Below, one piece after another: positions 36,928 to 46,667 of a DNA stretch of 64,000 bases (position 1 is the stretch's first letter; every line of letters starts with the position of its first letter). The stretch comes from an uncultured Nitrospiraceae bacterium (GTDB taxonomy: Bacteria > Nitrospirota > Nitrospiria > Nitrospirales > Nitrospiraceae). The notes beneath the pieces were generated by a model. That model saw only the letters and a list, made by a program, of their open reading frames with translations, had not been told where the DNA came from and made no database searches. The stretch is taken from the NCBI GenBank assembly GCA_963706325.1, contig CAVPLT010000004.1:256001-320000 (forward strand), given 5' to 3'. The translations under genes were made by a program, and so were the position numbers.

Positions 36928-38070
36928 TCAATTGTCCGGAGACGTCTTTGCGATCGCAAGGGCGGGCAATGAAGATTTGCACTCCCGTACGACGCGGACA
37001 AACAGCTCCGTCAGTTTCGGATCGAAATGCGTATCGGCTTGCAGGGAAACCCGTAGGATTGCGTCATCAATGGACAGAGGAAGGTGCCCAGGCATATCGA
37101 CCGTAAGGTTATCGAACGCCTGCGCAATAGCGACGATACGCGCCAACAACGGAATGCCGGCGCCCTGCAGGCCGTGAGGATTGCCCACACCGTCGAACCG
37201 TTCGTGATGATACGCCACGATTTGTCCCACTTCGGCTTGGAACCCTAATGGTAACAGCATGCGCGCGCCGGCCTCGGAATGCTCCTTGCCGTATGCGCTG
37301 TTTCCGATGCAATCGTCTTCATCCGGCGTATATTTATAGTTGGACAGGCTGATTTTTCCGATGTCGTGGAGAAAGGCCCCGAGTGCCAGGGCTTTCTGTT
37401 CTGGGAGGGGGAGATTCATCTGGTTGGCGAGAAGCGATCCGTAAAAACTGACGCGACTGCAGTGATTCAAGAGCTGGCGGTCCTTGGCTTCCAGCAGGTC
37501 AGATAGCAAGGGGATCAAAGCGGTCACCTCGCCCGCACCAGTGACAGCATCGGAAGAAGACTTGCCGATGGCAAAATAGTTCGATTGCACGTCCTTCCAG
37601 GCTTGGGTCACTTCTTGTTCCGTGCCCCATAACGCGGTCGAGGTTTTCAGGAACGATCGTAAGTAGTCCAGACGCTGTTTTTTTTCCAGCGTTTGGTTGA
37701 TCAGCGTGATGAGCTCGGTGACATTGAAAGGCTTGAGCAAGTACCCGGCTGCACCGTGCCGGATTCCTTCCATGGCGGACTTCAAGCTTCCATAACCGGT
37801 GATGATGATGACTTCAATATCTGCGTAGTCTTGCTTGATATCCTGGAGCAGGTCGATGCCCTGACGATCGGGCAATTTTTGGTCGAGCGTGATGAGGTCG
37901 ATGTGCCGTTCTTTCAGGACTTGTAGTGCAGACTTGGCGTTGTCGGCCGAATGGATTGTGAAGAAGGGTCGGAGGATAACTTTGAGCGCATCGCGCGGTC
38001 CGGTCTCATCATCGACGACTAGCACCGATGGTTTCTCAACTACGTAATCGACTGGTGCGTCAATCTCCAT
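36928..38070 (-). CDS. Response regulator with degenerate HD-GYP output domain
   Basis: REC (VVDDE, TLDQ, ITG, KPF); LHDIGK, HHERFDGVGNP, ARIVAIAQAFD. Confidence 0.9.
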   Translation of the reverse strand: MEIDAPVDYVVEKPSVLVVDDETGPRDALKVILRPFFTIHSADNAKSALQVLKERHIDLITLDQKLPDRQGIDLLQDIKQDYADIEVIIITGYGSLKSAMEGIRHGAAGYLLKPFNVTELITLINQTLEKKQRLDYLRSFLKTSTALWGTEQEVTQAWKDVQSNYFAIGKSSSDAVTGAGEVTALIPLLSDLLEAKDRQLLNHCSRVSFYGSLLANQMNLPLPEQKALALGAFLHDIGKISLSNYKYTPDEDDCIGNSAYGKEHSEAGARMLLPLGFQAEVGQIVAYHHERFDGVGNPHGLQGAGIPLLARIVAIAQAFDNLTVDMPGHLPLSIDDAILRVSLQADTHFDPKLTELFVRVVRECKSSLPALAIAKTSPDN

Positions 38071-38279: not shown

Positions 38280-39692
38280 TCATTCCTGAGTCACCGGAGG
38301 ATCGATCGCCGTGCCGTTGTCCGGCCTGCTGATACCCAAGGTGTCCATGCGATATTTCAGCATACGGCGGCTGATTCCCAACATGGTGGCTGCATGTGTT
38401 TGTACGTAGGTTGTACGTTTAAGGGCGTCCAGAATGATTTCGCGTTCGAATTCCATGACGGCTTTTTCGAGGGACAGCCGCCCTGCCAGCGTATCGTCTC
38501 GGAGCGAGGTTGATCGCGTATCGGCCCGCAGAATCGTCGGCAGATGCTCGGGCAGGATCACATTGGAGCCCTTGGACCAGATGAACGCTTGTTCGATGAT
38601 GTTCTCCATCTCGCGCACGTTTCCCGGCCACGGATAGTGCGAAACCAGTTCCAGCGATTCCTTGGTGAATTCCTGCGAGGGCCGCTTCTCTTCTTCGATA
38701 CGTTTGGCAAGAAAGTGTTTGGCGAGCAGTGAGATGTCCTCCCCGCGTTCGCGCAACGGCGGCAGATACAGCGCGATGACATTGATTCGGTAATAGAGGT
38801 CCTCTCGGAACAGGCCCTTGCGGACCAGTTCATCGAGATTTTTGTTGGTGGCAGCCACGATGCGCACATCGACTTTAATGGACTGCACGCCTCCGACTCG
38901 GGTGAACTCGCGTTCTTGTAGCACACGCAAGAGCTTCGCCTGGGTCGCCGGGCTGAGATCGCCGATCTCATCCAGGAAGAGGGTGCCCGTATGCGCCAGT
39001 TCGAATTGCCCTACGCGCCTCGCCGTCGCGTCGGTGAAAGAGCCTTTCTCGTGTCCGAAGAGTTCGCTTTCGATCAGGGTTTCCGGCAGTGCCGCGCAAT
39101 TCAGCGCTATGAAGGGACGCTCGCGCCGCGCGCTGTTGTAATGGATGGCCTTTGCTACGAGTTCCTTCCCGGTGCCACTCTCCCCCGTCACCAACACGGT
39201 GGTGCGGCTATCGGCGACCTGTTCGATCTTCGCGTAGATTTCTTGCATTGACGGGCTTTTGCCAATGAGATTGTGGAAAGCGTATCGCTGCACCACCTGG
39301 GCGCGTAATTGACGGACTTCCTGTTCCAATTCATGTTTGCCCAGCGCGCGCTCAATCACGATTTGTAACTCTTCCACATCGAAGGGCTTGGACAGATAGT
39401 CGGCTGCGCCAATTTTCATGGCGTCCACGGCGGTTTTAACAGCTTTCGTTCCAGTCAGCATGATCACAGGGACGGCACGATTTTCCGTGCGCATAGCGTG
39501 GAGAACGGCCAGGCCATCGGTTCCCGGCAGGATCACATCCAGTAGGACTAAATCAGGGGACTCGCGCTTGAAGAGCTGGAGGCCCTCGGTGGCCTCCGCC
39601 GCTTCCAGAATATCGTAGGTCGGTTCCAGAACCGCCTTTACTGAAGCGCGAACACGCGGCTCGTCGTCGACTAGTAACACCCGTTTTTTCAT
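38280..39692 (-). CDS. Sigma54-dependent response regulator (NtrC/AtoC family)
   Basis: REC, GESGTGKE, ESELFGHEKGSFTDA, LFLDEIGD, WPGNVRE, C-terminal HTH. Confidence 0.96.
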   Translation of the reverse strand: MKKRVLLVDDEPRVRASVKAVLEPTYDILEAAEATEGLQLFKRESPDLVLLDVILPGTDGLAVLHAMRTENRAVPVIMLTGTKAVKTAVDAMKIGAADYLSKPFDVEELQIVIERALGKHELEQEVRQLRAQVVQRYAFHNLIGKSPSMQEIYAKIEQVADSRTTVLVTGESGTGKELVAKAIHYNSARRERPFIALNCAALPETLIESELFGHEKGSFTDATARRVGQFELAHTGTLFLDEIGDLSPATQAKLLRVLQEREFTRVGGVQSIKVDVRIVAATNKNLDELVRKGLFREDLYYRINVIALYLPPLRERGEDISLLAKHFLAKRIEEEKRPSQEFTKESLELVSHYPWPGNVREMENIIEQAFIWSKGSNVILPEHLPTILRADTRSTSLRDDTLAGRLSLEKAVMEFEREIILDALKRTTYVQTHAATMLGISRRMLKYRMDTLGISRPDNGTAIDPPVTQE

Positions 39693-39693
39693 G

Positions 39694-40977
39694 TTACTCC
39701 CGTGCTGCTGACGCTGCAGCCCGCATACCCGATGCCGGAAGATTGACGGAGAACGTGGAGCCTACGCCCACTCGACTCTCGACCAGAAGTTGGCCACCAT
39801 GATCATGGACGATCTGGTGCGCACTGGTTAGTCCTAGGCCCGATCCGTCGCCGGCGCTGTTGGAGTGCTTTGTGGTAAAAAACGGATCGAAGATGCGCTC
39901 CAGATGTTCCGTCGCAATGCCGCATCCTTCATCCTCGACCTGCAATTGCACCCATGCGGTCCCCCCACTGTAGGGTAATAATCGGGTTTGTACGGAAATT
40001 ATGCCCTGGCCATTCGGCATTGCATCCAGCGCATTAAAGAAGAGGTTGAGGAGAACCTGTTTGATTTGTTGACGATCCATTGTGACGAGAGGCAGGTCAG
40101 GCGCCAAGGTGGTGCGGACGCGCGTGCCCCGCTGCGATGCGCGGGCCGATACGAAACAGAGACATGAGGTGACGAGTTCGTTGAGATCTACGTCGCTCAG
40201 TTGCGGAGCCATGTAGCTGGCGTAGTCAAGAATTTCGTGCAATAAACGCTCGATGCGATGGACATCCTCGATGGCTAGCCGGCTGAACTCCTTGATGAAC
40301 ACGGGGTCGTGCTGGCGCTGCGGGGCCAACTGGATAAAAGTCTTAATCGATGTAAGAGGATTGCGGATTTCATGGGCAAATCCGCCCGCCATCATCTCCA
40401 ACGAACGCAGCCGGTCCGTTCGTCTCATTAGCATCGAAGATCGCCGAAAATCGTCCTGTGCCAGGTGATTATCTAAGGCATTGGAGGCGATGTGTCCTAT
40501 GGTTTCGGTCACGGCAGTATTATCTTTGCCTATGTGAGTATCTGTGGTTTGCGGGCCGAAGGCACACACTCCGAGGAGGCCCCGGTGTGACCTGAGCGGA
40601 AGACAGAGGGCCGCCTGCAATGCCGACAAGGTCGCGTCAAGCCGAGAATCCCGCTCTTTTTGGTATTGAAGCATGTGCACGCTGTTCGAAAGGGACGTGA
40701 CAAGGGGGTGGTCATCGCGCAATATTGAGGGCAATGAATGCGCAGTAGGGTGCCCTGAAGTCGATAGGAGAAAGAACTGCTGAGCATCGATCCCTCGCAC
40801 CCAGATCGCCGCTTCAGGCATGTCAAGTTGTTCTGAGAGAGTTGCGAGAATGCAATGGCCAAGGTGCGGTAGATCCTTCTCGCGTCCCGCAGCCTCGGCA
40901 AAGGCACCGATCATTCTGACGAGGTCAAGTGAGTCTGTAAGGATAGAAGCGTGCGGGGTATGTTTGTCGGGTGTCAT
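39694..40977 (-). CDS. Cytoplasmic GAF-like sensor histidine kinase
   Basis: FAHEIRNPL, NLFFNALDA, DEGCGI, FDPFFTTK, GSGLGL; no TM. Confidence 0.93.
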   Translation of the reverse strand: MTPDKHTPHASILTDSLDLVRMIGAFAEAAGREKDLPHLGHCILATLSEQLDMPEAAIWVRGIDAQQFFLLSTSGHPTAHSLPSILRDDHPLVTSLSNSVHMLQYQKERDSRLDATLSALQAALCLPLRSHRGLLGVCAFGPQTTDTHIGKDNTAVTETIGHIASNALDNHLAQDDFRRSSMLMRRTDRLRSLEMMAGGFAHEIRNPLTSIKTFIQLAPQRQHDPVFIKEFSRLAIEDVHRIERLLHEILDYASYMAPQLSDVDLNELVTSCLCFVSARASQRGTRVRTTLAPDLPLVTMDRQQIKQVLLNLFFNALDAMPNGQGIISVQTRLLPYSGGTAWVQLQVEDEGCGIATEHLERIFDPFFTTKHSNSAGDGSGLGLTSAHQIVHDHGGQLLVESRVGVGSTFSVNLPASGMRAAASAARE

Positions 40978-41083: not shown

Positions 41084-44000
41084 TCAGCCAGCGGAATCAG
41101 GTTTTTCGACGACAGCGATGAGAATATGTCCGGAGAGCATACGCAGAAGTCTCGCTGGAGAAGGTGTGATTTGTGAAAGGCGCGCGTTGAGGGTGTCCTC
41201 TTCGAAGGTGTGCAATTGACCGATGCGAAGGGCTTTGCAGCACTGCGCCATGTGATTCAAGACCAGGCGGGTTTCCCCCGTGAACGCATCGCGACCCTCT
41301 TGTTGTACCGCAGACCGATATAAAAGACCCACATCTGCGGAGGGGGCGAAGGTGCTCACGACAAGTTTTCCACCCGGCCTGAGTACACGGAAAAGTTCAC
41401 GTAGTGCATGGAGGGGCGAAGGCGCAAAGCTGAGTGAGAGGTCCGCTACGATACGATCGAACGAATGGTCAGCGAAGGGAAGGGCTTCCGCAGATCGGCC
41501 GAGCACCCAACTCTGAGCTAAAGGGGTGGGGCCGGAAATCCGCCCCGAGAACAGTCCGTCCACCTGCTTCAGCGCGTCCTTTGTCGCAGACTGTGCGGCA
41601 TGAAGTGCCAAGGTGGAGAAGTCTACTCCGACATAGCGGAGTGGTCTCGCGTGACGCCACGTTTGAGCACGAAGGCGATAGGAAAGATTGAGCAAAAGTA
41701 GCCTTGCGAAGGAATGCATGCCACATCCGATGTCGAGAAGAGCTAGGCCTCCGTCCAGAGGTTGTGCGAGTTGGTAGAGCTGCTCGATATGTTGCCAATA
41801 GGTTGGTAGTTCTTCCAGGGCTTGAGTGAGATGTGTTTGCACGCTCCAAAGGCGATCCCTGGCTTCGGCGTTGACGAAATACTTGGCTCGGAGCCGGTCG
41901 CGTTCGAAGCGTGAACGAATGGCGATAGGCCTTGAGATGGAGAGGGGGATTGTTGCGGACGAAGGCGCGAAGTTGTTGGACGGCTGGCAGAGCTGCCGGA
42001 GACGTTGCCAACTCACCTCCAAGCCCTTCGGCGCGATGTCGCCGGCAGTCAAGATGGAATATGGTAGGCTCGCGCGGCGACCTTTTAATCCGAGTAGACC
42101 CATCGCATCGTTCAAGTGAATCGGTGAAGTTCCTGGTACCGTTGGTGCAGAAGCTTCGGGGTTGGCCGTGATAATCACGACCTCGGTTTCACAGTGCGTG
42201 AGATCACTACGTAGTGCGGTTACGTCCGTGTACTGTGCGGCAATGGCGTCAGTCAAGAAACGATCGATGTCTAGAGGAATTCCCAACAGATTGCCTATGC
42301 CGAATCGGGTTCCTGCTAGATGTTCTTGGATCAGATTACGTTCATGTAGTGCATCGAGACAATTCCGAAGGTCCAGAGTCGGATTGATCAGAATGAGCCG
42401 ACGAATCAATCGATGCCAGTCTTGACGTCGTAGCGCAATTCGCCCAAGGATGTCCGGCGCTACCATAGTCAGTGACGCCCCAGGCCACATTTTCTGCGTG
42501 AAGGCTAGGACGGTGTCGAGGTCGTCTTCCAGGGAGGTGAAGGTTGTCTGGGCTGGATCACCGTCGCTGAGGCCCAGATGGCAACTGTGGTCATAACGCA
42601 GAACTCGCAGCCCACCTTCTGCAAGAAGGTAGGCAAAGGCTACGTATGCCTGCTGAGTCATGCCATATCCCGAGCATAGGAGTACGATGGGAAGCAAAGT
42701 GGTCTGCGCTTGCCGGGGCGCGTCATGACACAGCGCGATAATGTGGCCCTCACGATTCCGCAATGCATGTGAGACCGTGATCACGGAACTATTGGCCGTC
42801 GGTTCGGCGAGATCGTGCGAAGGGCCGATCGCCGGCATAGTGATGCTTCGCAGTCTGTATTCCTGAGCAGTTGACAAATTCTCAAAACGCACTCCTAGCT
42901 GAAAACGTCCCTTCGATGCGGTCTCCGGGCGAGATGTTGTATTGATGCGCAGGATGCGCGTCCATATAACACGCGCGGTCCATAGGTCATCCGCCTCTTT
43001 TGAAGCCGGAGCGCCGATGGGTTGCGCGATTGGACCAACAAGAATTAATTGGATGATCTGATGCTCCGCCAGGGAGTCCAGGTGCCCGGACAATTCGAGG
43101 CAGGCTCCGTCTCGGCTGAGGTCCAAGATCAGGCCGGGCGGCCGATCCGACCGATTCTCCTCGATCGCAAGTCGAATGGGAATTGTAATCGCCAGACGAA
43201 CCGTTTCACGCCGGTCTTTCGGCATGTCACTCGATATAGGTACATTCTCATGCCCGTTCTTTACCGGTGAAAAGGGCGAAAGAATTAAGGCTTCGAAGCT
43301 CACCGAGGTGGAACCTTCTTGGAGTCCATCCAGAAGTGACTGCAGCACGTTTCGGTCACCGTCACTAGTGAGCGCAAATGATATGACGATGTCCTTGGTG
43401 AACTGCAATGTGGATTCGTCGGTTGTAGGAGGACGCTCATGCGCCATACCCTGAAGTTCCAGAAAGCTGACCGGTGTTTTGATGACCACATACGCCGGTT
43501 GCAAATGAACTGAGGGCGACTGGTCACGGAGCGTTAGTAGCGCTCCTCTTGTGCTCATGTTTCGAAGGACGCAGCGAAGTGTACTATTACCGATGGTCAG
43601 TTCAACGGGGAGCGATAGCAGGTGGCGCGGAAACCGACGGCGCTCACGAGTTGATACGGAAGGATTTGACGTATCAGCGGGGTACTGGCTGGTTCCAACT
43701 ATCGAAGCTTGTGTTCCAAGTTTGTCGAGACTGTCGGATGAGGTCAGCGTATCGCCGGCGGCCGGAATTCTAACCTTGATCGTCACTCCTTTGTCCGGTG
43801 TGCTCTCAATCTCGATGGCGCCCTTATGTGCATGGACGATCTGGTGAGCCCGCAGAAAATCCTCGGGCGATACGTCTTTGGCAGAGACGACGGATGGAAA
43901 ATTACTGTCGCTTGCGACGACTTGGATGGTGAAGCTGGCATAGGTGCGGGTGGTGTTCGGATCGGCGGCGATGACATCATGTGGCGTCCTTCTGCTATGA

Positions 44001-45283
44001 AGGACGAGTGGTTCGGTGTACAGAGTGAGCCAAGAGGATGTAGGCATTCCAGAAATGCAACGTTGAGCATAGTCGAGAAGAATTCGTGCGAGATCTTCGA
44101 CTGCCTCACGCGATCCTGTGATGACAGGGAGATCCTTAGCGAAGCGTGCCGTTAGCTGGGGGCCCTTGCCTTGTGATTCGCGTAGGGCAGACTGCATCAC
44201 CGCCTGGAGGATTTCATTGAGGATGAGAGGTTCATCTGACAACGGTTGTGCTTGAATAATCTGTACCAGCTGTTGGGTTAGTTGGTTGGCTTGCGAAGCC
44301 TGGGCGATCATGGTTTCTACATGCTGCTGGATTTTACTCTGCTGGATTGTGCTCAGCAGTCGTTGTGAGTCTTGGAGTAGAGTGGTCAGAGGCTGCTGGA
44401 GTTGACGTGATACCCTGGCGGCTTCCTGTGAGAGAGCGAGCTGGCAGTTGGTTTCTTGGAGTCTGGATTCCAACTGTGTGAGGCGGTCCTGCTGGGATTT
44501 TTCTTGTGAAAGATCACGTACCAACCCCACCGTGCCGATATATCGATGGGCATGGTCGAGCAATCCTTTGGCCGTAACCTCTACGGATACGACAGAAGGT
44601 GTCACATTTGGGGTCGATTTTCGATGCAGCGTGAGTTTAAACCTGCGCACGGAGCGGCTTCCGGCCCGGCGTTCGTTCACGCGAAAGCGTCCGGTAGCCT
44701 CCTCTTGCGGTGGAATAAGGATTGAGTAATGCTGGCCGGCAAGCTCCTCTGGTGTGTAGCCGAGCATTGCCGTCACGATGCCGCTGACATAGATAAAGCG
44801 GCCATCCTGGTCGAGCTCATATAAAAGGTCGTTCACGGTATCAATAAATCGAAGGTGCCGCTGAAAAGTGTGGTCGAGTTTCGCTTGCAGCTCGCGTTTC
44901 TCAACGGCCTCCTGGGCAGAGAAGAGCAACTCTGTGACAAAACCAGGTGAATTCTTAAACAGGAGGAAGTCTGCGCCGTTCTGCAAGGCTTGGATTGCCG
45001 TCTGTGAATCGCTCTGGTTTGTTTGAAGAAGGATTGCCGCATAGGGGGCATTGCGGCGGATACGAGCGATGATGTCGAGGCCGCTGTTGGGCTGCAAGTC
45101 CTGATCGATCAGGATGATCTGCCAGTCGGCTCGCTGACTAAAGGTGAGAGCGTCTTCTGAGGAGAAGCCGGCTTCAATGCGGCAATTTGCGAAGAAACCT
45201 CTTAAGCTGGAGGTCACCAGTTTGAGTTCGTCCGGATGTTCACTGATGAGCAGAATGTTTAATGACGATTCAGGACTCGGCAT
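41084..45283 (-). CDS. 1399-aa multidomain protein: REC-PAS-degenerate HK-PilZ-PilZ-LuxD-like alpha/beta hydrolase-SAM methyltransferase
   Basis: ILIDQDL (REC); ELDQDGRFIYVS...LGYTPEEL (PAS); RRRFPR/NMSTRG and RRETVR/DLSRDG (PilZ); SGYG...RVLRYDHSCHLGLSDG (LuxD-like); LLDIGCG, LPFADHSFD, VLRPGG (MTase). Confidence 0.85.
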   Translation of the reverse strand: MPSPESSLNILLISEHPDELKLVTSSLRGFFANCRIEAGFSSEDALTFSQRADWQIILIDQDLQPNSGLDIIARIRRNAPYAAILLQTNQSDSQTAIQALQNGADFLLFKNSPGFVTELLFSAQEAVEKRELQAKLDHTFQRHLRFIDTVNDLLYELDQDGRFIYVSGIVTAMLGYTPEELAGQHYSILIPPQEEATGRFRVNERRAGSRSVRRFKLTLHRKSTPNVTPSVVSVEVTAKGLLDHAHRYIGTVGLVRDLSQEKSQQDRLTQLESRLQETNCQLALSQEAARVSRQLQQPLTTLLQDSQRLLSTIQQSKIQQHVETMIAQASQANQLTQQLVQIIQAQPLSDEPLILNEILQAVMQSALRESQGKGPQLTARFAKDLPVITGSREAVEDLARILLDYAQRCISGMPTSSWLTLYTEPLVLHSRRTPHDVIAADPNTTRTYASFTIQVVASDSNFPSVVSAKDVSPEDFLRAHQIVHAHKGAIEIESTPDKGVTIKVRIPAAGDTLTSSDSLDKLGTQASIVGTSQYPADTSNPSVSTRERRRFPRHLLSLPVELTIGNSTLRCVLRNMSTRGALLTLRDQSPSVHLQPAYVVIKTPVSFLELQGMAHERPPTTDESTLQFTKDIVISFALTSDGDRNVLQSLLDGLQEGSTSVSFEALILSPFSPVKNGHENVPISSDMPKDRRETVRLAITIPIRLAIEENRSDRPPGLILDLSRDGACLELSGHLDSLAEHQIIQLILVGPIAQPIGAPASKEADDLWTARVIWTRILRINTTSRPETASKGRFQLGVRFENLSTAQEYRLRSITMPAIGPSHDLAEPTANSSVITVSHALRNREGHIIALCHDAPRQAQTTLLPIVLLCSGYGMTQQAYVAFAYLLAEGGLRVLRYDHSCHLGLSDGDPAQTTFTSLEDDLDTVLAFTQKMWPGASLTMVAPDILGRIALRRQDWHRLIRRLILINPTLDLRNCLDALHERNLIQEHLAGTRFGIGNLLGIPLDIDRFLTDAIAAQYTDVTALRSDLTHCETEVVIITANPEASAPTVPGTSPIHLNDAMGLLGLKGRRASLPYSILTAGDIAPKGLEVSWQRLRQLCQPSNNFAPSSATIPLSISRPIAIRSRFERDRLRAKYFVNAEARDRLWSVQTHLTQALEELPTYWQHIEQLYQLAQPLDGGLALLDIGCGMHSFARLLLLNLSYRLRAQTWRHARPLRYVGVDFSTLALHAAQSATKDALKQVDGLFSGRISGPTPLAQSWVLGRSAEALPFADHSFDRIVADLSLSFAPSPLHALRELFRVLRPGGKLVVSTFAPSADVGLLYRSAVQQEGRDAFTGETRLVLNHMAQCCKALRIGQLHTFEEDTLNARLSQITPSPARLLRMLSGHILIAVVEKPDSAG

Positions 45284-45665
45284 GAAAGATCTCAGGTCCT
45301 CACACAGGGGATATGATCGTGCGGTCCAGATGCTATTCGTGGCATGCCCAGCGTTTTGCCGTTCATCATTGACAGTTCGCCCTATTAGGGGGGACTGTAT
45401 GCTTAAAAACGGCTATTGGCGACATAAGTGGTTCAATATCATACAACCCCCCGAGATGCCCAGTCCGCTGCATGCGGGGACAATGTTACTTCGGTAGGGG
45501 AATAGCTTGTAATGGATTGAAGAAGGATCAGCGAGGGAGCTAAGCGCGCTTGGCTGAAAAATAGGTCAGCAGCCAGCTCTGAGCGATGAAGTCGCAAAGA
45601 CCAATATACGGGGGCATTGGCCCACTGCAAACTCTAGTCTGCCCCGGGCGCCGAGCAAGGCCTAT

Positions 45666-46667
45666 TTAACGGGCAGCGGTTGTGCTGGCAGGTTGTTGAC
45701 AGACGCCGGGAGTCATGTAGAGAAGATAGTTCCCCATTCCATAATGAATATTAGGGTTCTGCAAGGGGTGATGGTGAACCATGATCATTTCATAGTCGTC
45801 TTGTTTGGTGACCGCGAATCCTAAGTCATTTTTATACACTTGGTAAGGTCTAAAGTCGCGAAAGGTACCATCGGCATCCACGTCGGGAACGGTTCTGAGG
45901 AGGGTCTGGTTGGTAGTCTTATTCTCAAGCGCGACCATGAGGAGTTCATCGTGGCCGTGAGGGTAGGCGAATTTTACACATCCGTCCATGTTGAACTTCA
46001 GCGGCGCCGAAAGCACTGACACGCCCGGTTTAATTTCGATTCCCTCGTCGGTTTGATCCCCGCCTCGTTGACCGAACTTGCTGTAGCAGACGATATTCAC
46101 ACCCACTTGGTAGACATCCATCTCCTGTACTTTCGCGCCCCTCGGTGCCACATACATCGTGAACCGTGCCATTACGTCCTTCGTGGGTGGGGCCTTGTGA
46201 TAAAACGCGACCACGGACATCAGATTTTGACCTTTGCCCAGTTTCACGCCATATCCGTCCGGAAAGCGGGCTTCTGTCATCTCCAACCCCGCCCCGGCGA
46301 AAAACAACGGTTCCCCATCGCATGACACGCTGGGTTTGTCGTTATTCAACATGAGAATGTGATGGAGGTAGTTCTTCGGCAGCGGCTGGCCGTCCTTCGT
46401 GAATACTTCGGATTTATATCCGATCATGAACGTGTCGTCCGGCAACTGAAACACTTTTTTCGGCATGCTGGAGGCGAGATCGCCATCGTGCCCGGTCGGC
46501 AGATCAACCGGGCCGAACGTGAGGGTAACGGTGTGATCGTCGATGGTAATTTTGGTGTCGCCCGTACTGGGCATCGTAGGAATTGCGTGATGATCATGGC
46601 CGCCATCGGCATAGACCGCACTCGTGAGCCCTAGCAGGATCAGCATTGTCAGTAGCGCACGAATCAT
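45666..46667 (-). CDS. Secreted copper type II (PHM/DBH-like) monooxygenase-like protein
   Basis: Signal peptide, HDHH, YLHHIL, RFPDGYGVKL, FAYPHGH, GMGNYLLY; GAGGAGG SD. Confidence 0.65.
   Translation of the reverse strand: MIRALLTMLILLGLTSAVYADGGHDHHAIPTMPSTGDTKITIDDHTVTLTFGPVDLPTGHDGDLASSMPKKVFQLPDDTFMIGYKSEVFTKDGQPLPKNYLHHILMLNNDKPSVSCDGEPLFFAGAGLEMTEARFPDGYGVKLGKGQNLMSVVAFYHKAPPTKDVMARFTMYVAPRGAKVQEMDVYQVGVNIVCYSKFGQRGGDQTDEGIEIKPGVSVLSAPLKFNMDGCVKFAYPHGHDELLMVALENKTTNQTLLRTVPDVDADGTFRDFRPYQVYKNDLGFAVTKQDDYEMIMVHHHPLQNPNIHYGMGNYLLYMTPGVCQQPASTTAAR

Follow-up and report, generated by a model that had tools for sequence, protein, structure and literature searches.

The window considered in the present work is a stretch of 64,000 nucleotides from the genome of an uncultured Nitrospiraceae bacterium (GenBank assembly GCA_963706325.1, contig CAVPLT010000004.1), and its main subject is the minus-strand gene at 41084..45283, an open reading frame (ORF) of 1399 amino acids (aa) free of internal stops. 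The product of this gene, referred to below as the giant, is identified from the ORF, Pfam and homologs as a pseudoenzyme in which a receiver (REC) domain, a PAS domain, a pseudo-histidine kinase and two PilZ domains precede a dead module made of a LuxD-like hydrolase and a methyltransferase. An earlier reading based on the letters alone (the sequence-only reading) had proposed this domain order, and Pfam gives the same one: Response_reg at residues 10-111 (E 1e-10), PAS at 145-257 (PF00989, E 1e-10), a weak HisKA match at 284-341 (E 0.016, below cut-off), PilZ in two stretches (7e-13), Acyl_transf_2/LuxD at 836-953 (E 4e-7) and Methyltransf_11 at 1183-1309 (E 1e-12). The motifs which that reading quoted were located at 45115 (ILID), 44419 (ARVSRQLQQPL), 42673 (SGYG), 42607 (RVLRYDHSCHLGLSDG) and 41734 (DIGCG). 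TAL-repeat matches of the giant were sums of non-significant stretches, with 0 passing, and were discarded as an artefact. The ORF and its architecture are real and are conserved across Nitrospiraceae: an identical protein is present in a public collection, within a 15-member cluster, and a search of a 5.8-billion-protein set returned 91 proteins, from which an alignment of the giant with 68 homologs (69 rows, coverage 93-100%, identity 29-80%) was assembled, the named homologs being Nitrospira; from the names of such matches the genome is taken to be that of a lineage I-type Nitrospira.

The alpha/beta-hydrolase fold of the giant (aa 830-1105, 41969..42796, minus strand) was assigned by alignments, AlphaFold2 (AF2) modelling and Foldseek. 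Its closest solved relative is LuxD of Vibrio harveyi (1THT, PF02273), a myristoyl-acyl carrier protein (ACP) thioesterase/acyltransferase, and the kinship claimed by the sequence-only reading is upheld by both profile and fold. The PF02273 match scores 29.9 bits against a cut-off of 20.3, over residues 836-953 only, and the match to the NCBIfam LuxD equivalog scores 30 bits, below the cut-off of 420. The AF2 model of the dead LuxD-methyltransferase module (pLDDT 90.6, pTM 0.89) has the element order of the model of an intact module (pLDDT 93.9) and the same compact two-domain fold; in Foldseek searches 1THT was rank 2 for the giant's model (E 8e-13, TM-score 0.71 by target) and LuxD was rank 1 for the intact one. 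For the intact paralog described below, a VIA comparison with LuxD gave Z 31.7 and a root-mean-square deviation of 2.8 over 282 residues, and the family profile matched LuxD at E 2e-46, with the next match at 4e-18.

What the sequence-only reading missed is the state of the catalytic triad. The nucleophile of LuxD is given as Ser114 in PMC6279958. In the giant, D944 aligns with this serine, E1043 occupies the acid position and T1079 stands where intact relatives have the histidine. We take Asp211 and His241 to be the remaining triad members of LuxD. Ser and His are lost in the whole clade, the giant does not fit an acyl-ACP thioesterase, and, judged by its residues, it is a pseudoenzyme which has lost its catalytic residues. 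The nucleophile column of the 69-row alignment holds Asp in 67 rows and Asn in 2, with Ser in 0/69 full-length homologs. When 332 proteins were aligned to a profile of the intact members, the 305 rows of near full length divided into 198 with Ser, 88 with Asp, 13 with Gly and 6 with Asn. The Asp group used hereafter comprises 87 rows, P0229 having been set aside. An Asp-nucleophile hydrolase of the dehalogenase or epoxide-hydrolase type is ruled out, because the His column is unconserved in this group, holding His in only 3/87 rows.

The methyltransferase region (aa 1106-1395, 41099..41968, minus strand; Pfam, alignment and AF2) consists of a helical linker and a class I S-adenosylmethionine (SAM) methyltransferase fold in which the SAM motifs are retained and family-specific pocket residues are replaced. 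Motif I and the motif II acidic residue are present in the giant (D1184, G1186, G1188, D1221), and across the Asp group the first position of motif I is D/E in 87/87 rows, G1186 is kept in 85, G1188 in 84 and the motif II D/E in 73. The DIGCG which the sequence-only reading called intact is indeed there, but the family motif DxGCGNG reads DIGCGMH in the giant, and sister rows have a still more degraded motif I (MDVEVGLG, VDAGIAQS, IDSTFGES). Of the methyltransferase positions with a conservation of 90% or more in 139 intact rows, the giant has replaced eight; in the Asp group these eight are retained in 0 (F713), 16 (Y717), 12 (G758), 3 (Y854), 0 (K881), 1 (I916), 0 (E920) and 0 (F927) rows, and the replaced elements include the GCGNG glycine, FWxxY, NLVxxY, KP, E920 and F927. 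Other residues have become conserved in the same 87 rows, namely W1259 (87), F1286 (84), R1194 (82), R1353 (82) and H1358 (77), and the giant's Pfam methyltransferase score is as high as that of the intact paralog. No class of substrate was indicated by a PDB profile search, by Foldseek, by VIA (whose lists were filled by the hydrolase) or by Atlas (which gave generic methyltransferase clusters).

The part of the giant ahead of the hydrolase keeps its sensing domains and has lost the residues of a kinase. The receiver domain (aa 7-128, 44900..45265, minus strand, as are the other domains; Pfam) keeps D60, T88 and K110, and its acidic pocket is S14/E15, the sequence-only reading having noted a retained phospho-Asp and a weak pocket; D60 is present in 68/69 rows of the homolog alignment (one row is without its N-terminus), K110 is present in 69/69, and position 14 is N in 67/69 and also N or S in relatives with an intact triad. 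A PAS domain (aa 145-262, 44498..44851; PF00989, E 1e-10) leads into the pseudo-histidine kinase (aa 263-508, 43760..44497; Pfam and alignment), whose DHp-like helices are conserved and whose ATP-binding domain is eroded. In the alignment Arg293 occupies the position of the His which intact-enzyme relatives have in AHELSSPL and the neighbouring kinase has in AHEIRNPL, the H-box His occurs in 0/69 rows and the N and G boxes are missing from the giant, so that the replacement of His by Arg proposed earlier is borne out. A complex prediction for the pseudokinase (aa 255-512) with the neighbouring kinase core scored 0.02, which gives no answer either way. The PilZ domains (Pfam and motifs) lie at aa 546-655 (43319..43648; R549/R553 in RxxxR, with NxSxxG) and aa 690-815 (42839..43216; R692/R696, with DxSxxG). 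The cyclic di-GMP (c-di-GMP) motifs which the sequence-only reading described as intact are indeed so, with RxxxR at 43648 and 43216 followed by NMSTRG and DLSRDG, and R549, R553 and G580 of the first domain and R692, R696 and G726 of the second each occur in 69/69 rows.

The giant's domains are under purifying selection and are not decaying. The ratio of nonsynonymous to synonymous substitution rates (dN/dS), computed by the Nei-Gojobori method in 9 same-genus genomes which hold both the giant and the paralog, is ~0.06 in the pseudo-DHp, ~0.07 in REC, ~0.11 in the methyltransferase and ~0.13 in the first PilZ domain and in the N-terminal half of the hydrolase, with PAS and the hydrolase cap also within ~0.06-0.13; it rises to ~0.3-0.37 in the kinase ATP domain (~0.33), the second PilZ domain and the hydrolase half which once carried the catalytic Asp and His (0.37, vs 0.09 in the paralog), these ratios being rough because dS is close to saturated (0 to 15 of 36 pairs per region). 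Identity among same-genus giants is 85% in DHp and 52% in the kinase ATP domain (CA). The frame of ~1400 aa is open in nearly all carriers, with a stop or split in one genome (G240). Upstream of the gene, a conserved minus-strand block at 45432..45501 ending in TGTATGATATTGAA is likely to be its promoter (-10-like); its columns are invariant in 8/8 same-genus upstream regions, and it was missed by a sigma-70 scan, the sigma-70 and terminator scan being at chance level.

The same genome encodes a second, intact form of the module. A tblastn search of the genome found one paralog, on contig C5, with the layout PilZ-PilZ-LuxD-methyltransferase and followed by a tandem-HisKA_7TM kinase; the pair (L001:8388-14342, at ~44.4-50.3 kb of this contig of genome G000) is located beside Pup-proteasome genes. 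The paralog is 971 aa long from its first GTG and 910 aa from an ATG which stands behind a ribosome-binding site, and its S518, D617 and H647 align with Ser114, Asp211 and His241 of LuxD, so that the triad is intact. The kinase begins 34 bp further on, and contains two HisKA_7TM domains, GAF, HisKA and HATPase; no other HisKA_7TM gene was found in the genome. In 16 loci a pair of this type is followed on the opposite strand by an alpha/beta hydrolase of 343 aa, which could be a signal-degrading esterase.

The LuxD-methyltransferase core defines a family of 219 cluster representatives at E < 1e-30, whose layouts range from stand-alone proteins (550-600 aa) through forms with one to three PilZ domains or with REC-PAS to the full 1400 aa with an intact Ser-Asp-His triad (P0162, P0163, P0165, P0190, P0193, P0194, P0226). 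Of 10 clusters, names point to Omnitrophota in 2 and to WOR-1 in 1, and Atlas clusters add Verrucomicrobiota and Myxococcota; the family was matched in 45/251 genomes of the phylum and 264/401 of the order. Tblastn against 72,556 plasmid records found no full-length relative, and a metagenome scan yielded 5 family loci among 59, the others being generic hydrolase or methyltransferase matches. When the triad columns were left out of tree building, the clade of Ser-to-Asp copies with the giant (27 rows) nested among intact REC-PAS giants, both in a quick tree (SH-aLRT 98) and in a smaller, more careful one (support 85/89), and on a 56-row tree the nucleophile changes at least 6 times. Giant and paralog co-occur in 8/8 same-genus genomes and in most of 30 in an order-wide search. 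Genera g2, g5, g6 and g8 nearly always have one match, with a score like that of the dead copy, and the copies fetched from them have a broken triad. Two family members (L160:5085-8633 and L161:5036-8629) carry an additional C-terminal domain of ~300 aa with no Pfam match, and more distant PilZ-hydrolase-methyltransferase subfamilies with an FSxxS or PFSLSAR elbow occur at L064 and L065 (G153, G213) and as P0086 and P0316, the L065 member also adjoining a membrane kinase.

The giant's gene is the first of a minus-strand cassette of four. It is followed by a soluble GAF-HisKA-HATPase kinase (39694..40977, 427 aa, H and N boxes intact), whose start coincides with the end of the 7TM region in its relatives and whose core is 59% identical to that of the C5 kinase, the membrane part being missing; by a REC-sigma-54 activator of NtrC/AtoC type with a GSFTDA loop (38280..39692; profiles and alignment); and by a REC-HD-GYP-like protein (36928..38070; Pfam and alignment). 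Judged against what we take to be the HD-GYP consensus, this last protein has Gln for the last metal-ligand Asp and GNP for GYP. The Asp is missing in all 31 rows shown, intact cassettes included, Gln standing there in most, and because of this loss phosphodiesterase activity is uncertain; the sequence would allow that the protein may be a degenerate c-di-GMP binder. Loci L049, L050, L148, L150, L174 and L187 have the same gene order with the synthase intact and the kinase of 7TM type, and the cassette of the window is therefore a derived form.

The association of the serine with the membrane sensor was scored at 56 loci picked from those fetched, after removal of near-duplicates, of two distant rows and of loci cut off ahead of the next gene. 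A 7TM kinase is directly next at 25 of 29 Ser loci (at four of them the contig contains no more than its N-terminal part), one gene further along at 2 and not nearby at 2. The 27 loci without Ser have a kinase without transmembrane (TM) segments at 17, no kinase or another gene at 6, and a 7TM kinase one gene on at 3 and directly next at 1; all 16 Ser-to-Asp loci among the 56 have the TM-less kinase. The pattern is strong, but the loci are not independent: the loss of the 7TM region is a single change on the tree, and a pair test of the coupling of the two losses has no power. At L154:2883-7808 an intact PilZ2-LuxD-methyltransferase and a 7TM kinase share one frame of 1641 aa, whose junction near the methyltransferase end looks frameshifted.

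Sites for sigma-54 (-24/-12) were sought upstream with a standard consensus, at least 7 of 8 scored positions being required on the sense strand and expectations being derived from Markov shuffles. Such a site lies 30-272 bp upstream in 15/26 intact copies which have no REC domain and come from outside the giant's genus (0.21 expected), a count inflated by the kinship of the 15 loci; it was found in 0/30 dead copies with a TM-less kinase, in 0/12 other broken copies and nowhere in the window. Genome-wide sites could not be assigned to the cassette's activator. Right behind one site-bearing intact gene is a small gene whose product has a PEP-CTERM-like C-terminal tail (L176:5603-6337).

The place before the 7TM kinase can be taken by other enzymes joined to PilZ: a haem-oxygenase-like diiron (HDO)/TenA fold (L158, L160, L161 and L166, with a similar ORF at L178), KAS III (L170), an acyl-ACP-reductase-like protein (L205, E 4e-25, under cut-off) and an HMG-CoA-reductase-like protein (L203); a PilZ-aldehyde dehydrogenase at L156 follows the gene, and the contig ends there. 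This range suggests a set of interchangeable enzymes which would be gated by c-di-GMP, and a variable lipid signal would fit, because several of these enzymes act on acyl-thioesters. A Lux-type aldehyde pathway was ruled out: LuxE (PF04443) was not found and PF05893 gave only weak partial matches in the 96% complete genome, and the neighbours are signalling genes. A BioH-BioC-type fusion was discarded given BioC scores of 27.8-29.9 vs 185 bits and the signalling context.

Several known systems offer partial likenesses. Compared with LuxD, the present family is fused to PilZ and methyltransferase domains and lies in no lux operon, and the giant is without Ser and His. In Ralstonia, according to PMC11960443, the methyltransferase PhcB makes a fatty-acid methyl ester signal, and the kinase which senses it is encoded in the same operon. 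The intact family looks alike in function to this phc system (PhcB, PhcS, PhcR/PhcQ), in that the gene of the putative signal enzyme stands beside a sensor kinase at 27/29 loci of intact members, which is not true of the giant. Unlike in phc, the methyltransferase shares one chain with a thioesterase of its own and with PilZ, the receptor would be of HisKA_7TM-GAF type and the output sigma-54 and HD-GYP; PhcB did not turn up in general searches, in which no PhcB sequence was compared. In the diffusible signal factor (DSF) systems RpfF works with RpfC and RpfG or with RpfR. For DSF, PMC6361424 describes an acyl-ACP thioesterase, RpfF, whose fatty-acid product is a signal linked to c-di-GMP turnover and which is itself controlled through protein contact. 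The intact family would work along the lines of phc and DSF alike. RpfF has a crotonase fold, whereas the LuxD-methyltransferase family combines an alpha/beta hydrolase and a methyltransferase with built-in PilZ. DivL of Caulobacter is described in PMC4211667 as a PAS protein with a kinase core without kinase activity which reads response-regulator phosphorylation; it is a stand-alone pseudokinase, while that of the giant is one part of a REC/PilZ/dead-enzyme chain. PrsK-PrsR of the PEP-CTERM system, a membrane-GAF kinase with a sigma-54 activator, gives weak profile matches to both cassette counterparts, below the equivalog cut-offs (106.7-155.6 vs 300 bits and 432 vs 503 bits). We know of no synthase fusion in that system.

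These observations can be assembled into a mechanism in which the ancestral cassette would have comprised four genes, for a synthase, a 7TM-GAF kinase, a sigma-54 activator and a REC-HD-GYP protein. In the intact form the LuxD-like domain would take the acyl chain off acyl-ACP for methylation by the fused methyltransferase; the 7TM kinase would sense the product, a lipid able to diffuse and probably the methyl ester of a fatty acid, with sigma-54 feeding back on transcription and c-di-GMP gating the enzyme through PilZ. We consider it rather probable that the signal which the 7TM kinase senses is a methylated fatty-acyl compound made by the intact protein, and the data suggest an undescribed c-di-GMP-gated lipid autoinducer circuit. 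In the lineage of the giant, judging from the residues and domains now missing, both the synthase chemistry and the 7TM sensor of the kinase have been lost, and in its own genus signal making would fall to the C5 paralog with its own double-7TM kinase. The receiver of the giant might take or compete for phosphoryl groups from the neighbouring kinase and its PilZ domains might read c-di-GMP, while the DHp-like helices and dead enzyme folds would relay to the cassette by protein contact in the manner of DivL. Because its catalytic residues are lost and its sensing parts retained, the giant is probably a repurposed regulator; to the fuller statement, that it modulates its cassette in this capacity without catalysis, we give about an even chance. 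The single-chain, gated acyl/methyl enzyme imagined in the sequence-only reading fits the intact 1400-aa relatives and the paralog but not the giant as a thioesterase.

A number of points weigh against the role proposed for the giant or for the circuit. The partner and output of the giant are those we infer, and the product is a prediction for every family member. The sigma-54 site is found in 0/12 copies of the C5 paralog type and 0/3 REC-bearing intact copies, the positive loci being kin as stated; at L155 a 7TM kinase comes directly after a copy with Gly for Ser; the losses of Ser and of 7TM give 3 independent pairs and p = 1; and the dN/dS ratios share the roughness imposed by saturation. 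In sister genus g2, moreover, 15/16 giant-less genomes retain the TM-less kinase and the HD-GYP gene, the upstream neighbour now abutting the kinase in 14 of them, and two giant-less genomes hold only a relic of the giant's last codons. The giant can thus be cleanly deleted in g2 and is therefore an accessory part. The same persistence bears on the proposal that the dead module is an intracellular receptor for a lipid signal or for acyl-ACP/SAM status which replaces the 7TM sensor of the soluble kinase, the giant eavesdropping on a signal that it does not itself produce. Catalytically dead hydrolase folds act as receptors elsewhere (GID1), and the TM-less kinase at all 16 Ser-to-Asp loci, the conservation of the oxyanion loop (PGYG), elbow Asp (87/87) and cap region and the many genomes of g2, g5, g6 and g8 which hold only the one diverged copy are all consistent with a receptor; however, the kinase has a GAF domain of its own, and because it persists after deletion it does not need the giant's input, which weakens the model of an obligate sensor and leaves the receptor distinctly improbable.

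The retained SAM motifs and the residues newly conserved across the clade also count against a role free of catalysis, and they favour a methyltransferase which, with the hydrolase dead, would be active on a new substrate, either a cassette protein or a small molecule in the dead hydrolase pocket, under the control of c-di-GMP and phosphorylation. This alternative is the proposal of the sequence-only reading with the thioesterase reaction removed. Low dN/dS in this domain and a Pfam score at the level of the paralog point the same way, but the eight pocket residues of the intact family are gone and motif I decays further in sister rows; we regard this alternative as unlikely, and methylation of a partner by the giant as doubtful. 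A role for the giant as regulatory subunit of the intact paralog, dominant-negative or activating, would agree with the co-occurrence of the two within the genus and in most of the 30 genomes, yet g2, g5, g6 and g8, with nearly always a single copy at the dead level, make it most improbable. The idea of a decaying relic without function, to which the absence of a match in 50/102 g2 genomes, the deletions and the repeated loss of the nucleophile (6 changes) lend some colour, is largely refuted by the selection pattern, that is by dN/dS of 0.06-0.13 in six domains, and it also conflicts with the open frame in nearly all carriers, the invariant promoter block and matches in 30/30 g1, 41/51 g5 and 21/21 g6 genomes; we give it very little credence. 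Against these alternatives stands the repurposed regulator, and the giant may be summarized as a real, conserved and undescribed protein which is a pseudoenzyme and not the enzyme first envisaged, that enzyme being its paralog.

The sequence-only reading knew of no characterised protein with this architecture, and no description was found in literature on Nitrospira and its quorum sensing, PilZ, LuxD fusions or HisKA_7TM drawn mostly from outside subscription journals. The main text of a 2025 Nitrospirales survey does not mention PilZ, luxD, c-di-GMP or thioesterase, and its supplements could list the gene. According to PMC12342949, the one kind of quorum sensing described for Nitrospirales is that by acyl-homoserine lactones (AHL), and LuxI is missing from many genomes of lineage I. 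The intact paralog, from bacteria central to the nitrification of wastewater, is a concrete non-AHL candidate which can be tested in Escherichia coli, and a lipid product would be a first candidate ligand class for HisKA_7TM sensors. The giant itself, annotated as a methyltransferase, is probably the wrong enzyme to assay for signal synthesis; it is a clear case of a five-module enzyme becoming a pseudoenzyme under selection, with intermediates from Ser to Asn, Gly and Asp and clean deletions in relatives, and the wider family of synthases with 7TM kinases is the more testable discovery. A broader view can be offered only tentatively: Nitrospirales, Omnitrophota, Verrucomicrobiota and others might share an undescribed family of quorum-sensing systems whose lipid autoinducers, meant for orphan HisKA_7TM kinases, come from interchangeable enzymes that offload acyl-ACP and are gated by c-di-GMP, with autoinduction through sigma-54, the synthase having turned, in the dominant nitrifier lineages, into an intracellular receptor or integrator for a sensor-less kinase.

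Two further observations concern the surroundings of the cassette. At L063, L157 and L204 the kinase gene is lost (at L204 the giant too) and the sigma-54 activator and HD-GYP genes are still present. In the window, a secreted-looking protein of 333 aa, which has His-rich motifs and matches neither Pfam nor NCBIfam, is encoded at 45666-46667 on the minus strand, and across Nitrospiraceae its gene is conserved at this place upstream of the cassette, including genomes from which the giant has been deleted.

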